DNA from: a virus | DNA: 64,000 nucleotides | Direction: 5' to 3' (one strand) | Virus record (IMG/VR): IMGVR_UViG_3300002029_000005 | Shown here: positions 1,269-52,861 of the stretch, in pieces | Position numbering within the stretch: the stretch's first letter is position 1 | Layout of the letters: each line of letters begins with the position of its first letter | Position numbers and translations under genes: made by a program | Notes under the pieces: model-generated | What the model was told of the DNA's origin: nothing | The model's input: only the letters and a program-made list of their open reading frames with translations | Database searches by the model: none

Positions 1269-4200
1269 TTAAATCACCCATGACTCCAGCTCCCATAGAT
1301 TGCCATTCCATGCATGTGCTACTACAGTCCTAAGTCTCCATAGCCTACCTTTGTACGTGAACGAAGTAACCTCAAATGCACCACCCTGTGAAAAATCAAC
1401 ATTGAACCAAGCAAGATTTTTCACAACCGCGTTAAATGTCCTTTCCGATGGCGCCGTCATATTTGCGCTTGTTTGGTGCCAGTATGATAATGCGTCGGTT
1501 AACGTTTCATCCGTACCATCAACAGTTGTAAGCGTAACCTGTCTGTGTGTTGAACCAAACATAAATAGTAAGTTTGGCAGCTCTGCAAAAGTGTGTTCTT
1601 CATTGTCATTGGTGTTTACTCTGGTATATGTGTAATCAGCAAGCGCGGGTGTTTCAGTAAGCGTAATGCTGCAATCAGCACCGTCTGACTGTATAACCAA
1701 CTCACCTTCGGCTGATAGATTTCCATGACAAGAAGCAGCGTGTGCGTCCGCATCCGTAAACTGCCCTGCTTCAACGAACGCTTGACCGCCCGTTGGCTGT
1801 AGTTTTATAAGCCACGAAAGCTCATCATAAACCGTGTATGTCTCCGTACCGCTTGGGGTGTTCACAGTCAACGTTCGTGGCGTGATGATTTCTGTGCCTG
1901 TGGGTATGACAAAACCAAGTGCAGCATCACGCCAGATACGCCAGCCAACCAGCTTTGTTTGATTGTTTCCTGCTGCGACGGTATCCCATGTAACGTTGTT
2001 ATCCAATGTTGCCGGGAATTCAGACGTTACTATTTCATTCGTGTTTGGGTAAACTGCGTGCCTGGTTCTTGTGCCTGCCTCAACACGCGCCCAGACAGTA
2101 GCACGTTCGCTTAGTGTTGCGTACTGGTGTATAGCTTCGATCAAATCACCCTCTTGAAGCTCGATACCCATATCAATTACAGATGAATTCAGAATAGGGT
2201 GAGACACGTCTTTAACTTCGCGTATCTTGAGTAATCCATTAAATCCAGCGGCTTGTGTTTCAGTGATTGTTATCACTGCATCGTCACTGCCTGCGTTAAC
2301 TAACACCGTTCCGTTAACAGGGTCTACAATATCGACCGTTCCCACGTCTATAGTTGGGTTGTTGCTTATCTGTCTATTTGGGTTTAAGTCCAAATTCAAT
2401 ACAGTCGGAATTCCCTCATAAGCCGTTGCTGTCGCCGAACCACCTATGGTTCCTGCGCCACCCGCTAACGTTATCGTTCTTGGTGTCGCAAGCTCAAACC
2501 CTTCCGGCACAACAAATCCATTTTCCGCGTACGCCAATAATCTAGCCGTCCACAATTTTCGGGTTCCATTGTTAATGCCAATAAATTCTACTTCACCGGT
2601 TTCCGCATTAACCACGCTGCCGCGAATATATCCAGCATCATGCCATTGAAAGTAAAAATCCTTGCGTGTGCCGTCAGCATTGCGCGCGTTTGCTGGAGCC
2701 TGCTCTACTTTTGTATGGCTTCCGGCGCTGTCGGATATTTCCAACTCAATCAAATCAACAGTTCTTAAATCAACGCCGAAAACGTGACTTACCCATGTAG
2801 ATCCTGAGCCTACGTCTTGGCCATTGAATTCATGCTTTTTAACGACTTGCAACCCGCTATAAGTAGCGTCTGAGCTTCCGATTTTAGTTACAGTTTCCGC
2901 ATCAATCCTTATGAACTTGTGCCACTTGTAATCATTCGCGGCGATGGTCATTGCGGGCTGATCGATATTTAGAGGCGCTGTGCTAGCGTCGTTTCTTCGT
3001 ATGTAATACGTCGAATGCGTTGGCGGCATATCGAGCGTGCCGTCGCCATAGCTAGCATCTAGCACGTTAAAACTCAGCGTTTCGGTTGCGCCACCATCAG
3101 CCGGTAATGTCTCTGTGTGAATACCCTGGCCGATTCGATTTAGATAACCTGTGACCGCATCGGCTATCGAGTAATCGCCGGTTGTCGCCCCCTCATTAAA
3201 GACGTATTTGGCTTGCTCATCGCTAATGAATATTATTTCGTTATCGGCAAATGTTTCATTGTCCGTATCACCCAATGTATCGAACGTTCTGCTTGTGCTT
3301 GAGGTTGCGCCGATATCGGTAAGCGTCACATGCGCTATACCGCCAACACGCTTAACCATCATGCGTGTTTTTTCAGGCAAGGTGAATTGTCTCTGATTGC
3401 CTGCCGAGTCATCGAACGCTATTGACTGACCCGTAAGATCAATCCAATTGATGTTTGCAGGCGCCATCACAAGCGATAAGTTCTGTGGTGCTTCGCCCGT
3501 CCAGACGTTTAGATACGAATCGTTGTCGTTCGTTAGATCGGCGATAGGGCTAAAAGCACGCAAGCCAGAACCATCAAGATACTGCAACCATTGCGCTATC
3601 GGCTTAACTCGCCCTATCACTTCGAGACTGTTGCTATTCCAGATTGCAGAATCCATCGGGTCTGGCACAGCAACCTCATTCGGTAAATATACCTCATAGC
3701 GCGCACCCGCAACTTCATCAAACGTATTTAGCGGCGCAATCGCGTAGTAGTAGCCCGCAGGAACTGTTTCACCTAATGGCAGCTCATCAATGCCGCCCTT
3801 GTAACGACCGACTACAATCATATTGGGCGCTTCATCATCCCACCATGCCACTGTCATCGGACTTGGCGGTGTTGTGTCTGCCGGTAACTTAACTAAGTAT
3901 TGGACGCCTTCAATCTCATTACTGACCCCCGCTGGCGCTGTAGCAAAATAGGTATTGGCCACGTTCAATGCGCCTAGCTGCAATTCGGTATAGTTGATTT
4001 CGGATATACCTTGCACCCAGCGACCAACTGGCGGATTATTGTCCGGTGTTACGCCTTCGGTTGCAGTGGAATCCCAAAAGTAACGCTCATCACCCACATC
4101 TGAGAAATCACCCTTATTTAAAGCATTAGAGTTAATGGCAGTAAGTGAAGATATGTTGTCGTAGTAACCCATATCACGGCTAGTTTGAACAGAACAATAG

Positions 4201-25163: not shown

Positions 25164-25799
25164 GTGATGGAAGGCGTGAAAATCAGAATAAAGCAAGCGC
25201 GCAAAGCGTCTGAGCTAACGCAGCAGCAAATCGCGGATGCAATGTCATTGTCACGTCAACTTGTTTCGTTTTGGGAAAATCCAGCGCGACCAGAATTCCC
25301 ATCACTTGAACAGCTTCACATCATTGCAGCCAAATGTAGTACATCTGTAGTATGGTTAATAGTAGGTTCAGTTGAGTACACTGGTGATAACGAAACCAAT
25401 AGGAACGATGTTCCGTTATTGAACTGGAGTCACGCCGGACACGATAAACTGCCTATTTTTGACAATCACTTGGATGTTGTAAAGTTGCCTTGCCCTGCAC
25501 CACACAGTGAACACACGTACGCATTGACGGTTAACGGCAGGTCAATGGCTTCAACTAACCCCCTTGAAAAATCGTTTCCTGACGGCGTGGTTATCTACTG
25601 CGACCCATCCAGGGTGCAAGACGCCGCGAACGGCTCTTACGTGATTGCATACCTACCTTCAACACAAGAAATGATCTTTAAGCGTTATGGCAAGGACGGA
25701 GCAAATACGTGGCTTGAGTCAATAAATTCTGAATATCCAAAGATAACTGAGCCATTCGAAATACGAGCGCTAGTAATTGGAGCGTTTCAGAGCGTTTGA
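25164..25799 (+). CDS. cI: CI-like repressor (XRE HTH plus S24 peptidase)
   Basis: IKQARKASELTQQQIA...VSFWE HTH; YALTVNGRSM (Ser) and IFKRY (Lys) S24 motifs. Confidence 0.9.
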   Translation: MMEGVKIRIKQARKASELTQQQIADAMSLSRQLVSFWENPARPEFPSLEQLHIIAAKCSTSVVWLIVGSVEYTGDNETNRNDVPLLNWSHAGHDKLPIFDNHLDVVKLPCPAPHSEHTYALTVNGRSMASTNPLEKSFPDGVVIYCDPSRVQDAANGSYVIAYLPSTQEMIFKRYGKDGANTWLESINSEYPKITEPFEIRALVIGAFQSV

Positions 25800-33427: not shown

Positions 33428-33631
33428 ATGAGTGATGAAACAAAAAACGATGACGACCTATTGAAATCCAAAGAGGTCGCTGATTTATGGAGAATAAAAG
33501 TCACCACCTTGCGCAATTGGGTATGTGACCCAAACCACACAGCGCCGAAAGGTTTTAAGATTGGCAATAGCCGTGTGTGGCGGCGAAAAGTGGTTAACGA
33601 CTATGTTTCAGAAATGGAATCCGCTGCGTGA
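33428..33631 (+). CDS. xis: AlpA/excisionase-like HTH protein
   Basis: LLKSKEVADLWRIKVTTLRNWV...PKGFKIGNSRVWRR; adjacent to the integrase. Confidence 0.8.
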   Translation: MSDETKNDDDLLKSKEVADLWRIKVTTLRNWVCDPNHTAPKGFKIGNSRVWRRKVVNDYVSEMESAA

Positions 33632-34797
33632 AGTCGCATTGCGTCAACCTGATCGGACCACCATTGCATCAGCTCGATACGTTGGCTCATGTATTCGCCG
33701 CGATTGTATGCCGCTCGGATGGTGTTCTTGTCAAGGTGCGCCAATTGAATCTCAATCACATCAGCTCTAAACAAATCAGATTCGTTTGCCATGGTGCTAA
33801 AACTGGAACGGAAGCCATGAGGCGTATGTCGATAACCCTGATACCCAAGATACTTAAGGGCGTTATTCAGTGCATTTTCGCTTATGACTGGACTTTTGCC
33901 CGTCATGGATGGGAATAGGTGTTCACCGTGGCCGCTATAGTCGCGAAGATTTTCAAGTATGGATACAGTCGAATCAGTCAAAGGTATGTAGTGATCACGC
34001 GGTTTTTTCATTCTCGCCTTATCGATATGCCACATGCGCCCTTCAATATCTATCTCAGCCCACAACGAGCCTCTGAATTCACTGGAGCGCAAGAACACGT
34101 AAGGCAACAAGCGCAAAGCCAGGCCAATGATGATATTACGATCAAATCCCTGAATTTTTCGCAACAAAACGCCGAACTCTGCCGGGTCCACAATTGCAGC
34201 GTACTGCACCGGCTTGGATTTTTTCAACGCGCCCTTCAGATCACGGCAAGGGTCGCTCGGTATATGCCCAACCGCTACCGCATAGCGCATGATTTGACTG
34301 GTTACCGTAAGCAGTCTATGCGCTGTCTCAATGCTGCCTCGCGACTCTACAACCCGCAATACATGAAGAACATCAGGCGGAGTGATCTTGGTTACTTCAA
34401 GCTCACCAATAACCGGCGTAAGGTCTTTAAGTATGCGCAGCTTAACTGTGCGTCTGTGGCTATCGCTCCATTGCTGAATAGCCAACCATTCGTCGGCAAT
34501 CGCTTTGAACGAAAGGTCATTGCCAACGTGTTTTTTAACCTGCTTCGCGTGGCTCGGATCAACACCCCGATCAAGTTGTTCTTTTGCAGCAAACAAACCG
34601 ATTCGAGCCTGCTTTAATGAAACGCCAGGGTAGACCCCCAGTGACAGAGTGCGCCGTTTTTTTGCATACCGATAGTCATAGCGCCAGTATTTGCCGGAAG
34701 GTAGTACATGCAGGTACAGACCATTGCCGTCGCGCAGCTTTGCGGCCTTGCCATCGTATTGGATTTTTCGCAATTGAGAATCAAGTAGTTTTGACAT
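33601..34797 (-). CDS. int: Tyrosine integrase, P4-like (Arm-DNA-binding domain plus catalytic domain)
   Basis: LRDGNGLYLHV...GKYWRYDY; FLRSSE (R), MKK (K), HGFRSSF (HxxR), LAH, AYNR (Y). Confidence 0.95.
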   Translation of the reverse strand: MSKLLDSQLRKIQYDGKAAKLRDGNGLYLHVLPSGKYWRYDYRYAKKRRTLSLGVYPGVSLKQARIGLFAAKEQLDRGVDPSHAKQVKKHVGNDLSFKAIADEWLAIQQWSDSHRRTVKLRILKDLTPVIGELEVTKITPPDVLHVLRVVESRGSIETAHRLLTVTSQIMRYAVAVGHIPSDPCRDLKGALKKSKPVQYAAIVDPAEFGVLLRKIQGFDRNIIIGLALRLLPYVFLRSSEFRGSLWAEIDIEGRMWHIDKARMKKPRDHYIPLTDSTVSILENLRDYSGHGEHLFPSMTGKSPVISENALNNALKYLGYQGYRHTPHGFRSSFSTMANESDLFRADVIEIQLAHLDKNTIRAAYNRGEYMSQRIELMQWWSDQVDAMRLHAADSISET

Positions 34798-35074: not shown

Positions 35075-35533
35075 ATGAATCTGGCACCATCTTGCAAGAT
35101 ACCGCTCAGCAATGGTGGCTGCGCGATTGTGGACGCCTGCGATTACGAATTTCTGAATCAATGGATTTGGCGAAAATCTTCTGAAGGCTACGCGATACGC
35201 ACCATAAAAATTGATGGAAAACAGCACGTACGCCGGATGCACCGCATTGTTGCAGATGCACCCGATACTGTTCCGGTCGATCATAAAAACCGAAATCGAC
35301 TCGACAATCGCCGTGAAAATCTGCGCCACTCCAATTCCAAGCAAAACGCCATAAATCGCAGTCCTACCAAAGGCCGAAAGTATCGAGGCGTATACAAGCG
35401 CGGTAATCGGTTTGATGCACGCATCAACGTCAATGGCAAGCTTCTGCACTTGGGTACATTTGCGACCGATACAGAAGCCGCCAAAGCGTTCGACCAGGCC
35501 GCAATAAAACATCGCGGGATGATGCCATGTTGA
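35075..35533 (+). CDS. HNH-AP2 homing endonuclease
   Basis: VDHKNRNRLDNRRENLR (HNH) plus KYRGVY...FDARI...HLGTF...AAKAFD (AP2). Confidence 0.9.
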   Translation: MNLAPSCKIPLSNGGCAIVDACDYEFLNQWIWRKSSEGYAIRTIKIDGKQHVRRMHRIVADAPDTVPVDHKNRNRLDNRRENLRHSNSKQNAINRSPTKGRKYRGVYKRGNRFDARINVNGKLLHLGTFATDTEAAKAFDQAAIKHRGMMPC

Positions 35534-42558: not shown

Positions 42559-42993
42559 TTAAACATGCTCTGACTTTGCCGCAAGCTCTGTCAGTCGCTC
42601 ATGTGCAGCCCAGCATGCCTCAGTGCAACTGGCTTGTCTGTTAAGTTCAACTACCTCGTCAAGATCAGCGTCGCTCATTTTCGGATACCACCTTTTGAAT
42701 AATTTTCGAAGATCATCCCAAGTAGTCACGCCAAAAGGCTTTTTAGGGCTTCTGTCGCGTCTTGGCATATGAACCGGCATCAGCTCTGCCTCACGCTTCC
42801 TTTCCTCTTTGAACGCTTCTTCTCTTGTTGAATACCACTTATGAACTGACAATATAGCGCCTTTAGGTGCAACACCTGTCCACAAGTGATTGACAAGTCT
42901 CTTGTCTGGATTGTTGGTCATCCCGACATATACAACCTCACCCTTGTAAACAATATCGTAAACACACGCCCTATTTGTTTTTTTGCTTCTCAT
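42559..42993 (-). CDS. GIY-YIG nuclease-domain protein
   Basis: VYDIVYKGEVVYVGMTNNPDKRLVNH...EAFKEE. Confidence 0.75.
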   Translation of the reverse strand: MRSKKTNRACVYDIVYKGEVVYVGMTNNPDKRLVNHLWTGVAPKGAILSVHKWYSTREEAFKEERKREAELMPVHMPRRDRSPKKPFGVTTWDDLRKLFKRWYPKMSDADLDEVVELNRQASCTEACWAAHERLTELAAKSEHV

Positions 42994-43135
42994 ATTCTCG
43001 CCTTATCAAGTTCGAAATTACCCAGCTCTGCGACCTGTCTTGATTATCGCAAATCCACTCCAGTTGCTTTTTAGCCTCCGGCGTAATGCGCAAACTCAAT
43101 GCAGTGGTTTTAGTTTGCTTTTTAGATTTCTTCAT
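42971..43135 (-). CDS. Ribbon-helix-helix (Arc/CopG-like) repressor, 54 aa, not in track
   Basis: Hand translation MKKSKKQTKTTALSLRITPEAKKQLEWICDNQDRSQSWVISNLIRREYEKQKNK*. Confidence 0.75.
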   Translation of the reverse strand: MKKSKKQTKTTALSLRITPEAKKQLEWICDNQDRSQSWVISNLIRREYEKQKNK

Positions 43136-43160
43136 ATCTGTAATTATTGCCTGTATATTG

Positions 43161-43206
43161 ATTGTATAGCAATTGTATTGACATAGTCAATTGATGTTGG
43201 TAAAGT
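43161..43206. promoter_or_regulatory. Back-to-back sigma70 promoters sharing a palindrome
   Basis: Plus: TTGACA(43178)-17-TAAAGT with extended TG; minus: TTGACT-18-TACAAT; palindrome ATTGAC-ATA-GTCAAT at 43177-43191. Confidence 0.7.
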
Positions 43207-43294
43207 AACTGTCAATTAGATAAATACGTAAATTAAGGATAGCCACGCTGCACCGAAAGCGAAAGGCTGTCATAAACGCCCAGAACAGAGCAAT

Positions 43295-43396
43295 TGAAAT
43301 GAGTCGAGTTAGCAACAGCTATGAAACACGAGCCGCCATATTTGCGGTGATGGCGACGGTCATCGTTCGCTGGTTTGAATCCAGCCATTTCAGCCA
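43295..43396 (+). ncRNA. Non-canonical tRNA-like RNA (102 nt)
   Basis: Perfect 7-bp acceptor TGAAATG/CATTTCA; T-arm GCTGG-TTTGAAT-CCAGC; discriminator G, encoded CCA; interior not a standard cloverleaf. Confidence 0.7.
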
Positions 43397-43413
43397 TTCA
43401 CGCTAACCCCACT

Positions 43414-43701
43414 ATGCCTGAAGCAATAGAACCACTAGAGCCAATAGATGAATTGGAGCTGGCAAAACAACTGCTGGTTGTGCTGTGGTGTAATCATGAT
43501 CGTGGTGGTATTTCAATGGGTAGAAGTCATGATTCAGTTGTGCTTGAAGCAGCAATGGCTTTGTTAGGTGAACCAGAAACACCGACAGCAATACCACACG
43601 GTCAATTGGTAAGCGATGCGCGTGATTATTTGTCTAGTAAGCGCGCTCTAAAATATCAGTCTGTATCTGATGATTCAGACACTCACGAACCATTCACGTA
43701 A
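43414..43701 (+). CDS. Hypothetical protein
   Basis: ATG at 43414; the track start at 43375 lies inside the tRNA-like RNA. Confidence 0.55.
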   Translation: MPEAIEPLEPIDELELAKQLLVVLWCNHDRGGISMGRSHDSVVLEAAMALLGEPETPTAIPHGQLVSDARDYLSSKRALKYQSVSDDSDTHEPFT

Positions 43702-43722
43702 CCCCCACTTGGTAGCTAGAAT

Positions 43723-44151
43723 ATGCGACAAGTAAAACGATGGAGATACTACTGCGACCACTGCAACAAAGCAGGCGGCAGCAAGTACCACATGGAACGC
43801 CACGAAAAGCGATGCACCGCTAACCCTGATCGTGAGTGTGGATTCTGTATCGAGTTTGGTGATGTTGTACAGCAGCCTGTTAGCGAGCTTATTGAAGTAT
43901 TTGAAGATGCTGGCGGCGGCACTGAAGGGCTAAAAAAGCTGCGAGAAGCTACAGCAAATTGCCCTGCTTGTATATTGGCAACTTTGCGTCAAGCGCCAAG
44001 GGTTGAGGTAGATTCTTTTGATGGAATGGGTGAGCATGGAACGATAGAGATATCAGCGATAACCGATTCAGGGTTTGACTGGAACAAAGAAAGCAAAGCT
44101 GCTTACGCCGAACTCAATGCCGCTCGAAATGAGCAGCAATATTATTATTAA
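43723..44151 (+). CDS. Zinc-binding hypothetical protein
   Basis: YYCDHC...HEKRC, CGFC, CPACI. Confidence 0.65.
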   Translation: MRQVKRWRYYCDHCNKAGGSKYHMERHEKRCTANPDRECGFCIEFGDVVQQPVSELIEVFEDAGGGTEGLKKLREATANCPACILATLRQAPRVEVDSFDGMGEHGTIEISAITDSGFDWNKESKAAYAELNAARNEQQYYY

Positions 44152-44177
44152 CGCATACCCCCACTTTGGACTGAGCA

Positions 44178-44417
44178 ATGATCACATTAAGCGATAGACG
44201 CAAACTTTACTCATGCGGAAACTACTCTCAACACGGCATGGGCGCTAGTGATTCTGCGAGTATCTTAGTGGCCGCTAACAGCTAACAGGAAGCGCTGGGC
44301 TTGGCAATTCAATATGCCAACAAGACTGAATTATTAAACGAAAATTGGAACGTTACACCTGTTGAGTTTGAGGACGATGGCAGCTTTATAATCGCTTCTG
44401 AATTTTCATCAACATAA
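44178..44417 (+). pseudogene. Small gene interrupted by an in-frame TAA
   Basis: Hand translation ...ILVAANS*QEALGLAIQYANKTELL...SST*; stop at 44283-44285. Confidence 0.55.
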
Positions 44418-44444
44418 CCCCAGCAATTACAGGAAATAGAACCA

Positions 44445-44750
44445 ATGACAGCAAAGAAAAAAGCACAGTCGAAAAAGAAATCGACTGCAAAGAAAAAGGC
44501 CAGCGCTAAAAAGCAGGCTAGTTCAACACACAACCATTACGGTCATACTGTTTCTGACTCTCATATTGAGGTTAAGCCTGAAGTGAAAATATCGGCTGAA
44601 CACTTAAACAGCGTGGACACGATCGCAGGCGCATTAAAGGCGAATGCCGAGGGCTTGAAGAGCTTGGCATCAGCGCTAGCCTTTGAGCAAGCGCCAGATA
44701 TTAATGTTACTGCGATGCGCTTTGAAGCTGCCACGCCGAATAATGATTAG
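44445..44750 (+). CDS. Protein with a histone-like Lys/Ala-rich N-terminus
   Basis: MTAKKKAQSKKKSTAKKKASAKK. Confidence 0.6.
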   Translation: MTAKKKAQSKKKSTAKKKASAKKQASSTHNHYGHTVSDSHIEVKPEVKISAEHLNSVDTIAGALKANAEGLKSLASALAFEQAPDINVTAMRFEAATPNND

Positions 44751-44895
44751 CGGTTACATAAAATCAGCTCTTCTAAAATGCCGGATAGCATGGGCAAACC
44801 GCAAAGCGGAAAAGGCCCGAGAGCGGCTTGTATTGGCTGAGGATGACTATAGACAGCGGTGTATAGAATTGGATGCGCTGGAACAATCACGTTAA
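44743..44895 (+). CDS. Hypothetical protein
   Basis: MISGYIKSALL start overlapping the previous gene end. Confidence 0.45.
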   Translation: MISGYIKSALLKCRIAWANRKAEKARERLVLAEDDYRQRCIELDALEQSR

Positions 44896-44913
44896 CCCCG
44901 GCCAGGACAGACT

Positions 44914-45237
44914 ATGCAGCACGACGAACAGTGGCTTGAGAAAGAGCATTTAATTGATGAGATTGGCGGCATTGATGCGCATACAAACATCACGCAAATG
45001 GAAGCGACCATTGCAAAGAAATATCAAGAACACATGCAGCGCCTTATGCCTGCCCATCAGTATCACGAAGATATGGGGCCGGTACTTTGGCATCGATTGC
45101 CTGTTGTAGAGCCTCCGCACGTAGGCTCAACGTTGGATGAGGGCTGGTTCGATGAGCCTGTTCATATACTCAGAAAAGGCGAAACCAATGCCGAGTATTA
45201 CACTCATTTTCAGCTAATCCACATACCTGAACATTAA
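44914..45237 (+). CDS. Hypothetical protein
   Basis: RBS and co-orientation. Confidence 0.55.
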   Translation: MQHDEQWLEKEHLIDEIGGIDAHTNITQMEATIAKKYQEHMQRLMPAHQYHEDMGPVLWHRLPVVEPPHVGSTLDEGWFDEPVHILRKGETNAEYYTHFQLIHIPEH

Positions 45238-45255
45238 CCCCCGGACGGGAACATA

Positions 45256-45504
45256 ATGCAGCACACTATTAAAGAAACCACTTACAGCGCTAGGAAATCA
45301 TCGGGTTCACATTACACGGTAGATCGACATATTGGCGACACGCAAATGCGTGATATTGCAATGGTTTCGACGATACCAAACTTCGAGCTTACCTATGGCG
45401 GTAAGGGGCATAAATGCACCAGCGTTAAGGATGCGGTAGAGAAGCTTGCGAAGCTTGATCATGGCTCAGAAGAGCATGACAATCACCTCAAGCAAGCGGC
45501 TTGA
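45256..45504 (+). CDS. Hypothetical protein
   Basis: RBS and co-orientation. Confidence 0.55.
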   Translation: MQHTIKETTYSARKSSGSHYTVDRHIGDTQMRDIAMVSTIPNFELTYGGKGHKCTSVKDAVEKLAKLDHGSEEHDNHLKQAA

Positions 45505-45538
45505 ACGCAACCCCCCCCTCTTTAAATAGGAGATAAGC

Positions 45539-45942
45539 ATGGCAGCATCGCCAAAGTACAAGATATTCTCATCTGATGATGAATACCGAGGTTCAGCAAA
45601 ATACGCAGAAGATGCGGCAGCTTTTGCGGGTAGTCTCGGTGTTGGCGCTACTATCAGGCTAGGTCATGCTAAATCAGATATTGTTGCAGTTATGGATGAT
45701 GAACTTGTAGACAGCGTTGATGAAACTGCCTGCGTGATCCATGACAAAGAAGATTTACGGAAGGCTCAATCTGAAGCGAAAAGAAAGCGTTTCAGCCAAG
45801 CCTTGTGGCTGGCTACCGGATATGCCAAACAGAGTTAGCACCTGATAGCAGCGTTTTGTCGGATGATGAGATCATGGAAAAGATCGAGAAAAACAGACAC
45901 CTTTTGCGCGTTGAAATTAACCGTATTTTTGAATCAACATAA
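45539..45942 (+). CDS. Hypothetical protein, probably frameshifted near 45780
   Basis: Track ORF ends at 45838; the -1 frame continues as ...ELAPDSSVLSDDEIMEKIEK...FEST* to 45942, followed by the CCC motif. Confidence 0.45.
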
Positions 45943-46174
45943 CCCATGATTAACACAACCTCCAGACAACGGACGAACGCATGACAGACCGAATACGAAC
46001 ACTGACAGTTATCTTAGACAAAGAAATGCGCACTGATGACGTGCAGTGCGTTGTCGATGCTATTCATATGGTTAAATATGTTAACTCGGAATTATGTAGC
46101 AGTTGCACAAGGACGTGCAGCTGCGAAAACGGAGGGTTTAGCCACTCAAGTAGTGGCTGGTGATTACCGCGTCC

Positions 46175-46579
46175 TTAATTTTTTGGATGTTTGCCTCGTG
46201 CAATGTCAATTCGCACATCCCTCATATCGGCGTACCTTCCGTAGCTACTCCAGTTAGCTTGCCCATTCGGTTTATCGTCGTGAGACCTAAACTCGATCCT
46301 GCCAGCAACACTCTGTCCAGCCCTGTCTGTTTTAAACGTATCGCTGTAAGTGATATCGAAAACACGTATTTCAGACAAGTCGCCATTAGCGTCGTCGGCA
46401 TCAATAAGCAGTTCCTCAGTAAACAACTCAATACGATCAACTACTTTGCTTTCCCCTACACCCACAACGTCCATGTTGTTACTATTTTTAGAAAGAAGAT
46501 TCCCATTCTTGGCGCTGTTCACTTTGGACAAATAGCAAATATCATAGATCGTTGCGCCACCCGCACTGTAAAAGGTCAC
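46175..46579 (-). CDS. Hypothetical protein
   Basis: 134 aa, convergent with the early operon. Confidence 0.45.
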   Translation of the reverse strand: MTFYSAGGATIYDICYLSKVNSAKNGNLLSKNSNNMDVVGVGESKVVDRIELFTEELLIDADDANGDLSEIRVFDITYSDTFKTDRAGQSVAGRIEFRSHDDKPNGQANWSSYGRYADMRDVRIDIARGKHPKN

Positions 46580-46601
46580 AGTAACGCACTAACACACCTT
46601 T

Positions 46602-47065
46602 GCTCTTAGGCTTTGCGTGTGGTAGGACACACGCAAAGCCTTTGAGCCGGAATCCGTAACGGGTGGGACGTGTTCCACCTGATAGGAGGACACCGTGTAG
46701 TGGTTACTACGGTTGCTATTTTAGCAAAAATCCCTCCATCAGGCCAGTCGACAACCCCATCACAACCAACTACAGGTACTCAATATGAGTGTTTGTGCGT
46801 GGCCCAAAGCGGTATATGTGCGTCAGTACGTACGGTTTCGCTTCGGGAGGTTGGAGATAGTAAGGCAGCACTGCCGTAGCTTTCCTAACCAAAATAGCGC
46901 CTATCAATTAGCGCTCTAATCGCTAAGAGATAGGAATTTTCAATGCGTTAGATAGCGCGGGTACTGCTGGACCTCCAATCCAGTGGAAGGAGGCGTGAGG
47001 TGATGCATAGTCAACCTCTTGCTAGGAAGGAGGCGTGAGGTGATGCATAGTCAACCTCTTGCTAG
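46602..47065. ncRNA. Long structured non-coding region (candidate ncRNA or leader)
   Basis: At least six hand-identified helices, including a perfect 13-bp stem and a three-way junction; no credible long ORF. Confidence 0.55.
46985..47064 (+). repeat. Exact 40-bp tandem duplication
   Basis: GGAAGGAGGCGTGAGGTGATGCATAGTCAACCTCTTGCTA x2. Confidence 0.95.
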
Positions 47066-48601: not shown

Positions 48602-48735
48602 GGGTTGCGCCGAATGGCTCGGTGATGCTCTCCAGTAACGGCTTGGTTGCGCTGTCTAGTTGCCAGGTATCGAGCTGGCCGGGGCAGACTCTCGCGTAGC
48701 AAATAGGATGGTTCGATTCCATCTGCGATCCACCA
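48602..48735 (+). ncRNA. Non-canonical tRNA-like RNA (134 nt) with an alanine-type acceptor
   Basis: GGGTTGC/GCGATCC acceptor with G3.U70, discriminator A, encoded CCA; T-arm GATGG-TTCGATT-CCATC; ~55-nt extra arm. Confidence 0.75.
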
Positions 48736-48740
48736 AATAC

Positions 48741-48761
48741 AAAAGGCCGCATTACGCGGCC
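48741..48761. terminator. Hairpin between convergent transcripts
   Basis: GGCCGC-ATTAC-GCGGCC preceded by AAAA (U-tract on the minus strand). Confidence 0.55.
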
Positions 48762-48840
48762 AATTGCTCCTATCAAAGTATCGCTATCATCCAGCAAGTG
48801 AAAGCCACTGCGAACGCTAAATTAAAACAGGTTCTTAAGC

Positions 48841-52345: not shown

Positions 52346-52861
52346 TTATTCCTGTGATTGAGTTGCGTTTAACTTAGCGGTTAGTTGCTTTTTATTAGTT
52401 CTTCTGTATAACTCTACTTGGCGCACATTTTCATCGATAGCCGCGAGTATTGCGCCACTGGCCTCCCATGCCGTTGATTCGTCAACAGAAACATCGATAG
52501 CCATATCCTTGTATTGATCTTTGATTAAATCAAAGTCCTGTGCATCGCTAAGCTCTTGCGTTGGGAACGCTTGCCTATAGCGCCACGCATCGAACTGCTT
52601 TGCTGAATATGCCTGCGGGTTCTTTAGCTGTTCCAGTTTAACGAGCTGTTTCTCGATATCTTTTAGCTTTGCATAAGCCAAAGCCGCTGGATGCTGATTG
52701 GCAAGCCACTCGGATTCAAACCAACGTATTGTAGATAGATCTGTTTCGTCCGTTACATCACACGGACCAGCGCCCTTAGCAATAAAATTCTCCGCCGCAT
52801 AGCCTGTAGCTATAATCCAATGGATTTTTGAGTCATCTGGCGGATTTACTAATCTACCCAT
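52346..52861 (-). CDS. Hypothetical protein (possible fibre chaperone)
   Basis: Tail operon ORF, coupled. Confidence 0.55.
   Translation of the reverse strand: MGRLVNPPDDSKIHWIIATGYAAENFIAKGAGPCDVTDETDLSTIRWFESEWLANQHPAALAYAKLKDIEKQLVKLEQLKNPQAYSAKQFDAWRYRQAFPTQELSDAQDFDLIKDQYKDMAIDVSVDESTAWEASGAILAAIDENVRQVELYRRTNKKQLTAKLNATQSQE

Follow-up and report, generated by a model that had tools for sequence, protein, structure and literature searches.

What can a phage gain from a sequence that carries the outer half of a transfer RNA (tRNA) around an interior that looks like no tRNA at all? The question is raised by positions 43295-43396 (plus strand, 102 nucleotides (nt)) of IMG/VR record IMGVR_UViG_3300002029_000005, a 64,000-nt stretch of phage DNA, which is referred to below as the window and in which all coordinates are counted. 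Its source is an uncultured temperate marine phage. The answer that we favour, to which we give somewhat less than an even chance, is that this element is a non-decoding, cis-acting mimic of the tRNA top half that would be cut by ribonuclease P (RNase P), by analogy with the t-elements of plant mitochondria. This call rests on pattern statistics and on the folding of one sequence. The element can be divided into the following parts, for which "MFE" denotes the minimum free energy fold and "bp" base pairs:

43295-43301, plus strand: acceptor 5' strand TGAAATG, the last three bases of which are the ATG of an overlapping open reading frame (ORF); pair probabilities 0.42-1.0 in six transcript contexts
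43304-43331, plus strand: interior hairpin 1, bulged, 28 nt, in the place of the D-arm and after a 2-nt linker (A, G); MFE and centroid folds, pair probabilities at the base of the stem 0.73-0.84
43332-43348, plus strand: interior hairpin 2, 5-bp stem and 7-nt loop CAUAUUU, with the geometry of an anticodon arm; MFE fold, pair probabilities 0.82-1.0
43349-43364, plus strand: interior hairpin 3, 6-bp stem and 4-nt loop, at the site of a class II variable arm; MFE fold, pair probabilities 0.99-1.0
43365-43368, plus strand: linker GUUC, 4 nt, between interior hairpin 3 and the T-arm
43369-43385, plus strand: T-arm mimic GCTGG/TTTGAAT/CCAGC; pair probabilities 0.95-1.0 in all contexts
43386-43396, plus strand: acceptor 3' strand CATTTCA, discriminator G (43393) and CCA (43394-43396); direct reading and pattern script

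The acceptor-type helix (43295-43301 with 43386-43392) comprises 7 bp without a mismatch, according to direct reading as well as to the pattern script. The T-type stem (43369-43373 with 43381-43385, 5 bp, closing the loop 43374-43380) abuts the acceptor 3' strand with 0 nt between them, and all 12 pairs of the two stems are of the Watson-Crick type. The CCA that follows the discriminator is encoded, and a U occupies position -1 (43294). The initial annotation of this locus, made from the letters alone, had placed the 7-bp acceptor, the 5-bp T stem with its TTTGAAT loop, G73 and the CCA exactly there. The T-arm retains the equivalents of G53-C61, T54, T55, R57 and A58 and matches the T-arm motif of t-elements, GGTTCRANYCC, with one mismatch. 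Position 3-70 is an A-U pair and not the G3-U70 pair that identifies alanine tRNA and transfer-messenger RNA (tmRNA), and the acceptor holds only a part of the glutamine identity set. The intact part of the element is what the enzymes of tRNA maturation read, namely the coaxial acceptor/T helix of 12 bp, the T-loop, the purine discriminator and the encoded CCA.

The element is not a decoding tRNA. It bears no signature of a D-arm: positions 8 and 9 are A and G, there are no equivalents of U8, A14 or G18/G19, and a 28-nt hairpin without GG stands instead. The sole 7-nt loop of anticodon shape, CAUAUUU, carries A33 and U37, as opposed to the U33 and purine 37 of tRNA. With default settings ARAGORN reports 0 tRNA genes and 0 tmRNA in the window, and Rfam gives no match at gathering scores and none that is relevant at E up to 10 on 43150-43750. 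ARAGORN models these coordinates at 50% thresholds only, by means of an invented 10-nt intron and beside junk models on both strands; at 70% thresholds it returns a junk tmRNA model with an unidentified tag on the opposite strand, and relaxed runs (introns, mitochondrial mode, tmRNA mode) yielded just junk-level models. These results agree with the initial annotation, which had described an atypical D/anticodon interior, had preferred a tRNA-like RNA to a decoding tRNA, and had anticipated that standard scanners might overlook it. The combination of a perfect top half with an interior devoid of any tRNA signature would point to selection acting on the top half alone, rather than to the neutral decay of a tRNA gene.

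The architecture of stacked acceptor and T stems followed by NCCA was found by the pattern script at a single site on both strands of the window (128 kb of strand), the search pattern being the standard definition of a tRNA top half and not one tailored to this sequence. Without the NCCA requirement there are three such sites. First-order Markov shuffles contain 0.78 bare architectures and 0.01 architectures with NCCA per window; no site satisfied the T-loop rule TTNRANN (with the CCA requirement dropped) in 300 shuffles of this kind, and the reversed natural sequence holds three bare architectures and none with CCA. By multiplying the natural rate of bare architectures with the odds that base composition gives for CCA and for TTNRA we estimate that the architecture, the T-loop rule and NCCA would coincide by chance ~1e-4 to 4e-4 times per window. 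The element is statistically unusual.

Folded alone, the 102 nt form a five-way junction (-32.9 kcal/mol, z -2.16; 4 of 200 shuffles fold equally well), in which the acceptor helix is followed by the 2-nt linker, the three hairpins 43304-43331, 43332-43348 and 43349-43364, the 4-nt linker and the T-arm. After correction for G+C content, the element belongs to the most stable 2.5% of all 102-nt segments of the 64 kb. The acceptor and T helices form in each of the six transcript contexts, from the bare element up to the transcript 43213-43720, with pair probabilities of 0.42-1.0 and 0.95-1.0, respectively. The interior had originally been drawn as one long bulged hairpin with the core CGCCAT/ATGGCG; this pairing has a probability of ~0 and costs 5.9 kcal/mol, which rules it out in favour of the three hairpins.

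The immediate surroundings of the element, which bear on its possible role, include the following features:

42971-43135, minus strand: Arc/Mnt-type ribbon-helix-helix protein, 54 amino acids (aa); Pfam RHH_9, PHROG Arc-like repressors
43178-43206, plus strand: sigma-70-type promoter-like site TTGACA-17-TAAAGT, TG-extended, 10 of 12 matches; pattern reading
43238-43271, plus strand: stable 5'-leader hairpin upstream of the tRNA-like domain; seen in every context fold that spans it
43414-43701, plus strand: first conserved gene of the operon, 95 aa, no assigned function; start fixed by alignment with two relatives

The element lies in sense orientation 17 nt upstream of the 95-aa gene and overlaps no supported gene. 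The -10 hexamer of the promoter-like site ends 89 nt upstream of it, in keeping with the spacing of about 90 nt given in the initial annotation, and the transcript would start near 43213. The mRNA of the 95-aa gene lacks a Shine-Dalgarno (SD) sequence. For bacterial RNase P an encoded RCCA and a U at position -1 favour cleavage, and an acceptor/T minihelix suffices as a substrate. The 12-bp helix, the T-loop, the RCCA and the U at position -1 all serve RNase P, and recognition by this enzyme is the minimal mechanism that would draw on exactly these features. What the sequence shows directly is that the features are present and would rarely coincide by chance, that their fold is robust and that they do not make up a tRNA; transcription, each step of cleavage and an effect on the message are inferred, in the following manner. 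A transcript started near 43213 would contain a tRNA-like domain that folds autonomously, and the RNase P of the host would cleave it between U43294 and U43295, taking off a leader of 82 nt. It is possible that the domain would then be retained as a base-paired, protective 5' end of the message. Alternatively, the 3' maturation of the host might trim the RNA at the CCA, which would give rise to a stable small RNA and to a new 5' end for the SD-less mRNA of the 95-aa gene. With either outcome, the net role of the element would be that of a tRNA-type punctuation or processing signal, in the fashion of t-elements.

The main rival of this interpretation, which we regard as unlikely, is a chance resemblance, i.e. 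an ordinary structured 5' leader or an early gene of 35 aa (starting at ATG 43299) in which the top half has no function. A number of results weigh against a processing signal. Comparative support is nil: the sole other copy of the element, in contig L014 (JGI sample 3300000165), is a fragment that starts inside the element and is identical over the 67 nt covered, so that no covariation is seen, and no homologue with covariation is at hand. C56, which is nearly invariant in tRNAs and forms part of their elbow, is not kept, as the T-arm has T at this position. The thermodynamic signal is just moderate, that of a structured and not of an extreme sequence. The relatives of the 95-aa gene (81% and 68% identity; contigs L011-L013) have other leaders, which lack the element. 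There are no tRNA-like folds at the other gene junctions of the operon, hence no series of punctuation marks, and no short copies of the minihelix were found elsewhere in the 64-kb window. In addition, bare acceptor and T architectures occur about three times per window in natural sequence, and ~250,000 windows were surveyed, so a few chance cases as good as this one are expected somewhere. The T-arm motif is found with one mismatch at chance level in the window (11 matches versus 8.9 expected), and the 11-nt core of the T-arm, GGTTTGAATCC, recurs at 52712-52722 (minus strand) within a long coding ORF, which indicates that a T-loop-like word can by itself arise by chance. Against a chance resemblance stands the rarity of the joint pattern, estimated above, together with its occurrence on the right strand and in the right place.

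The possibility of a small gene, which the initial annotation did not mention, deserves a closer look:

43299-43406, plus strand: overlapping ORF of 35 codons, ATG 43299 within the acceptor helix, TAA 43404; ORF list

The frame of this ORF is open from stop to stop for 60 codons (43224-43403), a circumstance that also counts against a processing signal, and ~15% of the plus-strand stops in this region reach at least 35 codons. Likewise, its TAA at 43404 is a part of the TAACCCC motif that ends neighbouring genes, and no other observation favours a small gene as much as this shared stop. Translation of the ORF is nevertheless unlikely. Its codon score of 0.05-0.07 per codon equals that of the best frame of non-coding controls and falls near the 5th percentile of windows read in the true frame; the genes next to it score 0.17-0.41. 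No SD sequence precedes the ATG, which is itself paired in the acceptor helix, and the hydrophobic run of the translation amounts to 12 residues between two arginines, below the ~18 needed for a membrane helix. A full HMMER search of 1.84 billion representatives found no homologue at E 0.001 or better, and there is no match in Pfam or PHROG. Each of these tests (codon score, SD, hydrophobicity, homology) has low power at 35 residues. With the same reservation as to power, the absence of an SD, the paired ATG, the lack of a coding signal and of a homologue and the 12-residue run make a small membrane peptide or type I toxin-like gene unlikely. The upstream 25 codons of the frame (43224-43298) would read as a stretch rich in arginine and lysine and contain neither an ATG, GTG or TTG start nor a coding signal.

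An improbable alternative is that the element acts in trans, as an excised and stable 102-nt RNA with a CCA end that titrates a host factor which reads the acceptor end. This factor could be EF-Tu, a synthetase, the CCA-adding enzyme, or else a toxin or an enzyme of defence that attacks the 3' end or the acceptor stem of tRNAs. The structural evidence for a trans-acting RNA is the same as for a cis-acting signal; moreover, an encoded CCA and a purine discriminator would be superfluous in a hairpin that merely stabilises a message, and a second top half in the same phage, at 48602-48735 (with G3-U70 and ACCA), suggests a theme. On the other hand, the element presents no mimic of an anticodon loop, which makes anticodon nucleases unlikely targets, and with no G3-U70 and only a part of the glutamine acceptor identity set, charging is unlikely. 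Its complementarity to the operon is not significant (-38.2 versus -35.9 +/- 3.2 kcal/mol for shuffled queries), and no tRNA-related enzyme or defence-related partner is found among the early genes scanned. For these reasons the roles put forward in the initial annotation, a decoy for anticodon nucleases or a modulator of a synthetase or of the stringent response, are not borne out. A trans-acting decoy would require the first steps of the cis-acting signal plus a target, and none is indicated. Its boldest form, in which a stable, CCA-ended and anticodon-less RNA from the start of the early transcript would soak up, as a sponge, a toxin of a defence system or a host enzyme that reads acceptor ends, perhaps jointly with the alanine-type top half at 48602-48735, we consider a long shot; were it true, it would be a form of counter-defence by RNA that is not described for phages.

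The second top half is itself only a candidate. It is situated on the plus strand ~5 kb downstream of the element, between convergent genes and beside a terminator-like hairpin of the minus strand (48741-48771), and it combines G3-U70 and U5-G68 with the T-loop TTCGATT, an ACCA end and an exact match to GGTTCRANYCC. Neither ARAGORN nor Rfam matches 48602-48735, its fold has a z of only -0.46, and the 26-mer at its 3' end does not occur in IMG/VR. Chance could account for the wobble-rich 5' strand, and a 3'-end fragment of a tRNA or tmRNA, of the type found at attachment sites, is a live alternative.

About as improbable as the sponge is the proposition that the element is what remains of a tRNA gene, or of a recombination site that derives from one (the captured 3' part of a tRNA, or an attachment core of the P4 type) without a present function as RNA. 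This temperate phage has a P4-type tyrosine integrase (33601-34797), a kind of enzyme for which tRNA genes are common targets, at their 3' ends; furthermore, the last two thirds of the element (43332-43396) are ordered as an anticodon-type arm, a variable-type arm, a T-arm, the acceptor 3' strand and CCA. Nonetheless, 8.5 kb separate the element from the integrase. The 21-nt string that runs from the T-loop to the acceptor has no exact match in GTDB (one genome for each of 185,579 species), so that these genomes, for which alone the negative speaks, give no sign of an attachment-site core derived from a tRNA 3' end; in the metagenomes of JGI it has two exact matches (L015 and L016), both of them unrelated and due to chance. 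T56 would be unexpected in a genuine tRNA of the host, a 5' strand with a perfect 7-nt complement within range would be met by chance in ~0.5% of cases according to our calculation, and neutral decay would not preserve all 24 stem positions while it erases the interior. Taken together, T56, the lack of a genomic match, the distance of the integrase and the perfectly complementary 5' strand argue that the element is not a fragment of a host tRNA.

Searches for relatives of the locus returned little. Comparison of the early region and of the tail region with 50,697 phage records revealed no similarity at the DNA level, and an exact 24-mer was not found in IMG/VR. A query for sequencing runs that hold this DNA listed none. 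The 95-aa protein has two relatives in 5.8 billion clusters and none in IMG/VR or in the GTDB genomes, even when an alignment was used as the query. In the two contigs with the more distant of them (L011 and L012, 68% protein identity) the gene is preceded by an intergenic region of 164 nt with a similar promoter and a shorter leader that lacks a T-arm (fold z -3.1); in L013 (81% identity) the homologue overlaps an upstream ORF of 240 aa. A likeness between the leaders of the window and of L011 is visible by eye (AATGA..CGAGTTA..GC; TTAGC.AACA..ATGAA.CAC) and is not significant when compared with shuffles (p ~0.14-0.2). Within L011:4182-4302 the -10 hexamer ends 8 nt ahead of the ATG of a 12-codon mini-ORF, which is possibly leaderless, and a 6-codon mini-ORF of the same contig stops 4 nt short of the homologue of the 95-aa gene.

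The wider setting is that of a temperate phage genome with a G+C content of ~46%. The long minus-strand ORFs at both ends of the window suggest virion genes, and ERF recombinase and a CsrA-like gene are also encoded (Pfam). Other features of relevance are:

25164-25799: CI/LexA-type repressor (peptidase S24/helix-turn-helix (HTH)); Pfam
33601-34797: P4-type tyrosine integrase; Pfam
43394-43413, plus strand: 20-nt repeat of family D4, copy 1, from the CCA to the base before the start codon at 43414, including TAACCCC; 85% identity
43690-43709, plus strand: 20-nt repeat of family D4, copy 2, in another reading frame; 85% identity

The scanned early genes match peptidase S24/HTH repressor, ERF, CsrA, integrase, metallophosphoesterase, HNH-AP2 and, at the borderline, GIY-YIG in Pfam, and none of them is a tRNA-related enzyme. 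Two of the early genes are of the homing-endonuclease type. The HNH-AP2 gene (35075-35533, plus strand) adjoins the integrase; the borderline GIY-YIG gene (42559-42993, minus strand; 21.7 bits versus the Pfam cut-off of 22.6), which has no relative in IMG/VR, is located just downstream of the gene for the Arc-like protein, for which no homologue was found either. On the minus strand, the Arc/Mnt-like gene has a promoter-like site of its own (43190-43161), which faces the one on the plus strand. Under the facing sites (43160-43222) GTCAATT(G/A) is repeated near 43186 and 43211, and these copies are candidate operators for the divergent Arc/Mnt-like repressor; the whole arrangement is reminiscent of the immI region of phage P22. 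The most stable 102-nt segments of the 64 kb by far, with G+C-corrected z down to -5.8, lie on both strands of 46539-46710, a region centred on a 20-nt inverted repeat (46602-46647).

The plus-strand operon is a run of small genes without assigned function. Since the two copies of the 20-nt repeat fall in two reading frames, they presumably represent a signal at the nucleotide level. Throughout the operon (43394-45945), (T/A)AACCC(C) or ATACCCCC is found at or just past the stop in nearly every gene junction, and seven TAACCC stop codons each close a frame that is open for 35-116 codons, one of them (43821) inside the 142-aa gene and in another frame. In the related contig L011 (4553-4870) ATACCCCACTTAGG and TAAACCCCC occur at gene junctions despite different neighbouring genes. 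These observations suggest that the junction motif is a conserved linker, a cassette boundary or an RNA signal.

The 142-aa protein (43723-44151, plus strand) contains several CxxC pairs and belongs to no Pfam or PHROG family; the gene call of the source is 119 aa long and starts 23 codons after the start of the longest ORF. It has 149 relatives, in metagenomes and in phage contigs of widely varying G+C content, the best of which are 49-58% identical. In the 14 contexts of this family that were read (L001-L010, L017-L020) there is no tRNA and no tRNA-like top half. In phage contigs of high G+C content a repeated intergenic hairpin of ~70-100 nt precedes the homologues (L002:2320-2400 and 2860-3000, L005:1975-2062, L006:2905-3000). 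It is closed by CCTAAC...GTTAGG, the TAA of the opening strand being the end of the preceding coding stretch, and it may be read as a long hairpin similar to repetitive extragenic palindromes (REP) and not as a tRNA mimic.

If the element is real, an early operon in a temperate phage of marine bacteria begins with a processing signal of the tRNA type or with a mimic of tRNA. The punctuation of transcripts by tRNA-like structures, known from organelles, would then extend to the expression of phage genes, host RNase P would be used for shaping phage messages, and a class of elements that is invisible to routine annotation (by ARAGORN and Rfam) would gain a further member. These implications should be read with caution, given a single sequence, an overlapping open frame and no relatives.

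It remains to compare the element with RNAs of known type. It shares with canonical tRNA (RF00005 and the ARAGORN model) the 7-bp acceptor helix stacked on a 5-bp T stem, the 7-nt T-loop, the discriminator and the CCA, and with class II tRNA in particular the 2-nt linker after the acceptor and the succession of a 5-bp/7-nt arm, an extra hairpin and a short linker. It differs from both in the lack of a D-arm, in A33, U37 and T56, in its length of 102 nt and in its rejection by ARAGORN and Rfam. The tRNA-like domain of tmRNA provides another parallel, as there too the acceptor helix made by the paired ends stacks on a T-arm, different structures take the place of the D and anticodon arms, and the RNA ends in CCA. 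However, the element has A3-U70 and not G3-U70, its discriminator is G and not A, and at 102 nt it contains no tag frame that ends inside the RNA and no predicted pseudoknots, and it matches neither ARAGORN at default settings nor Rfam.

As a small RNA that would head the early operon of a temperate phage, the element can also be likened to the C4 antisense RNA of phages P1 and P7 (RF01695) and to the CI RNA of P4. The C4 and CI RNAs stand at the heads of immunity-type early operons and, to our knowledge, lack a T-arm mimic. The C4 RNA of P1 and P7 is listed among the substrates of RNase P (PMC3378863, citing Hartmann et al. 1995). In contrast to these RNAs, the element has no match in Rfam even at E up to 10. 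An antisense role of this kind was rejected, as the best duplex with 43397-47000 reaches -38.2 kcal/mol and shuffled queries -35.9 +/- 3.2 kcal/mol.

The closest documented analogue of the element is the t-element of plant mitochondria. These non-canonical tRNA-like folds, which were found by means of the T-arm motif, direct cleavage by RNase P and RNase Z at the ends of mRNAs (PMC1920247), and in some cases they give rise to a stable small RNA that gains non-encoded C residues (Forner et al. 2007, PMC1920247). Both have a tRNA-like fold that is non-canonical and includes the T-arm motif and an acceptor-type stem, and both are placed inside an mRNA precursor, a placement that in the present case is predicted. 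The t-elements belong to an organelle and are known from mapped transcript ends, whereas the element described here belongs to a bacterial virus, is known from its sequence and predicted fold, and occurs once, at the start of an operon, with an encoded CCA and a five-way junction in which three hairpins foreign to tRNA are inserted. With respect to the tRNA-like features that would be presented to the processing enzymes, the phage element may nonetheless be regarded as a counterpart of the t-element, in which the top half of tRNA would serve to mark the end of a message.

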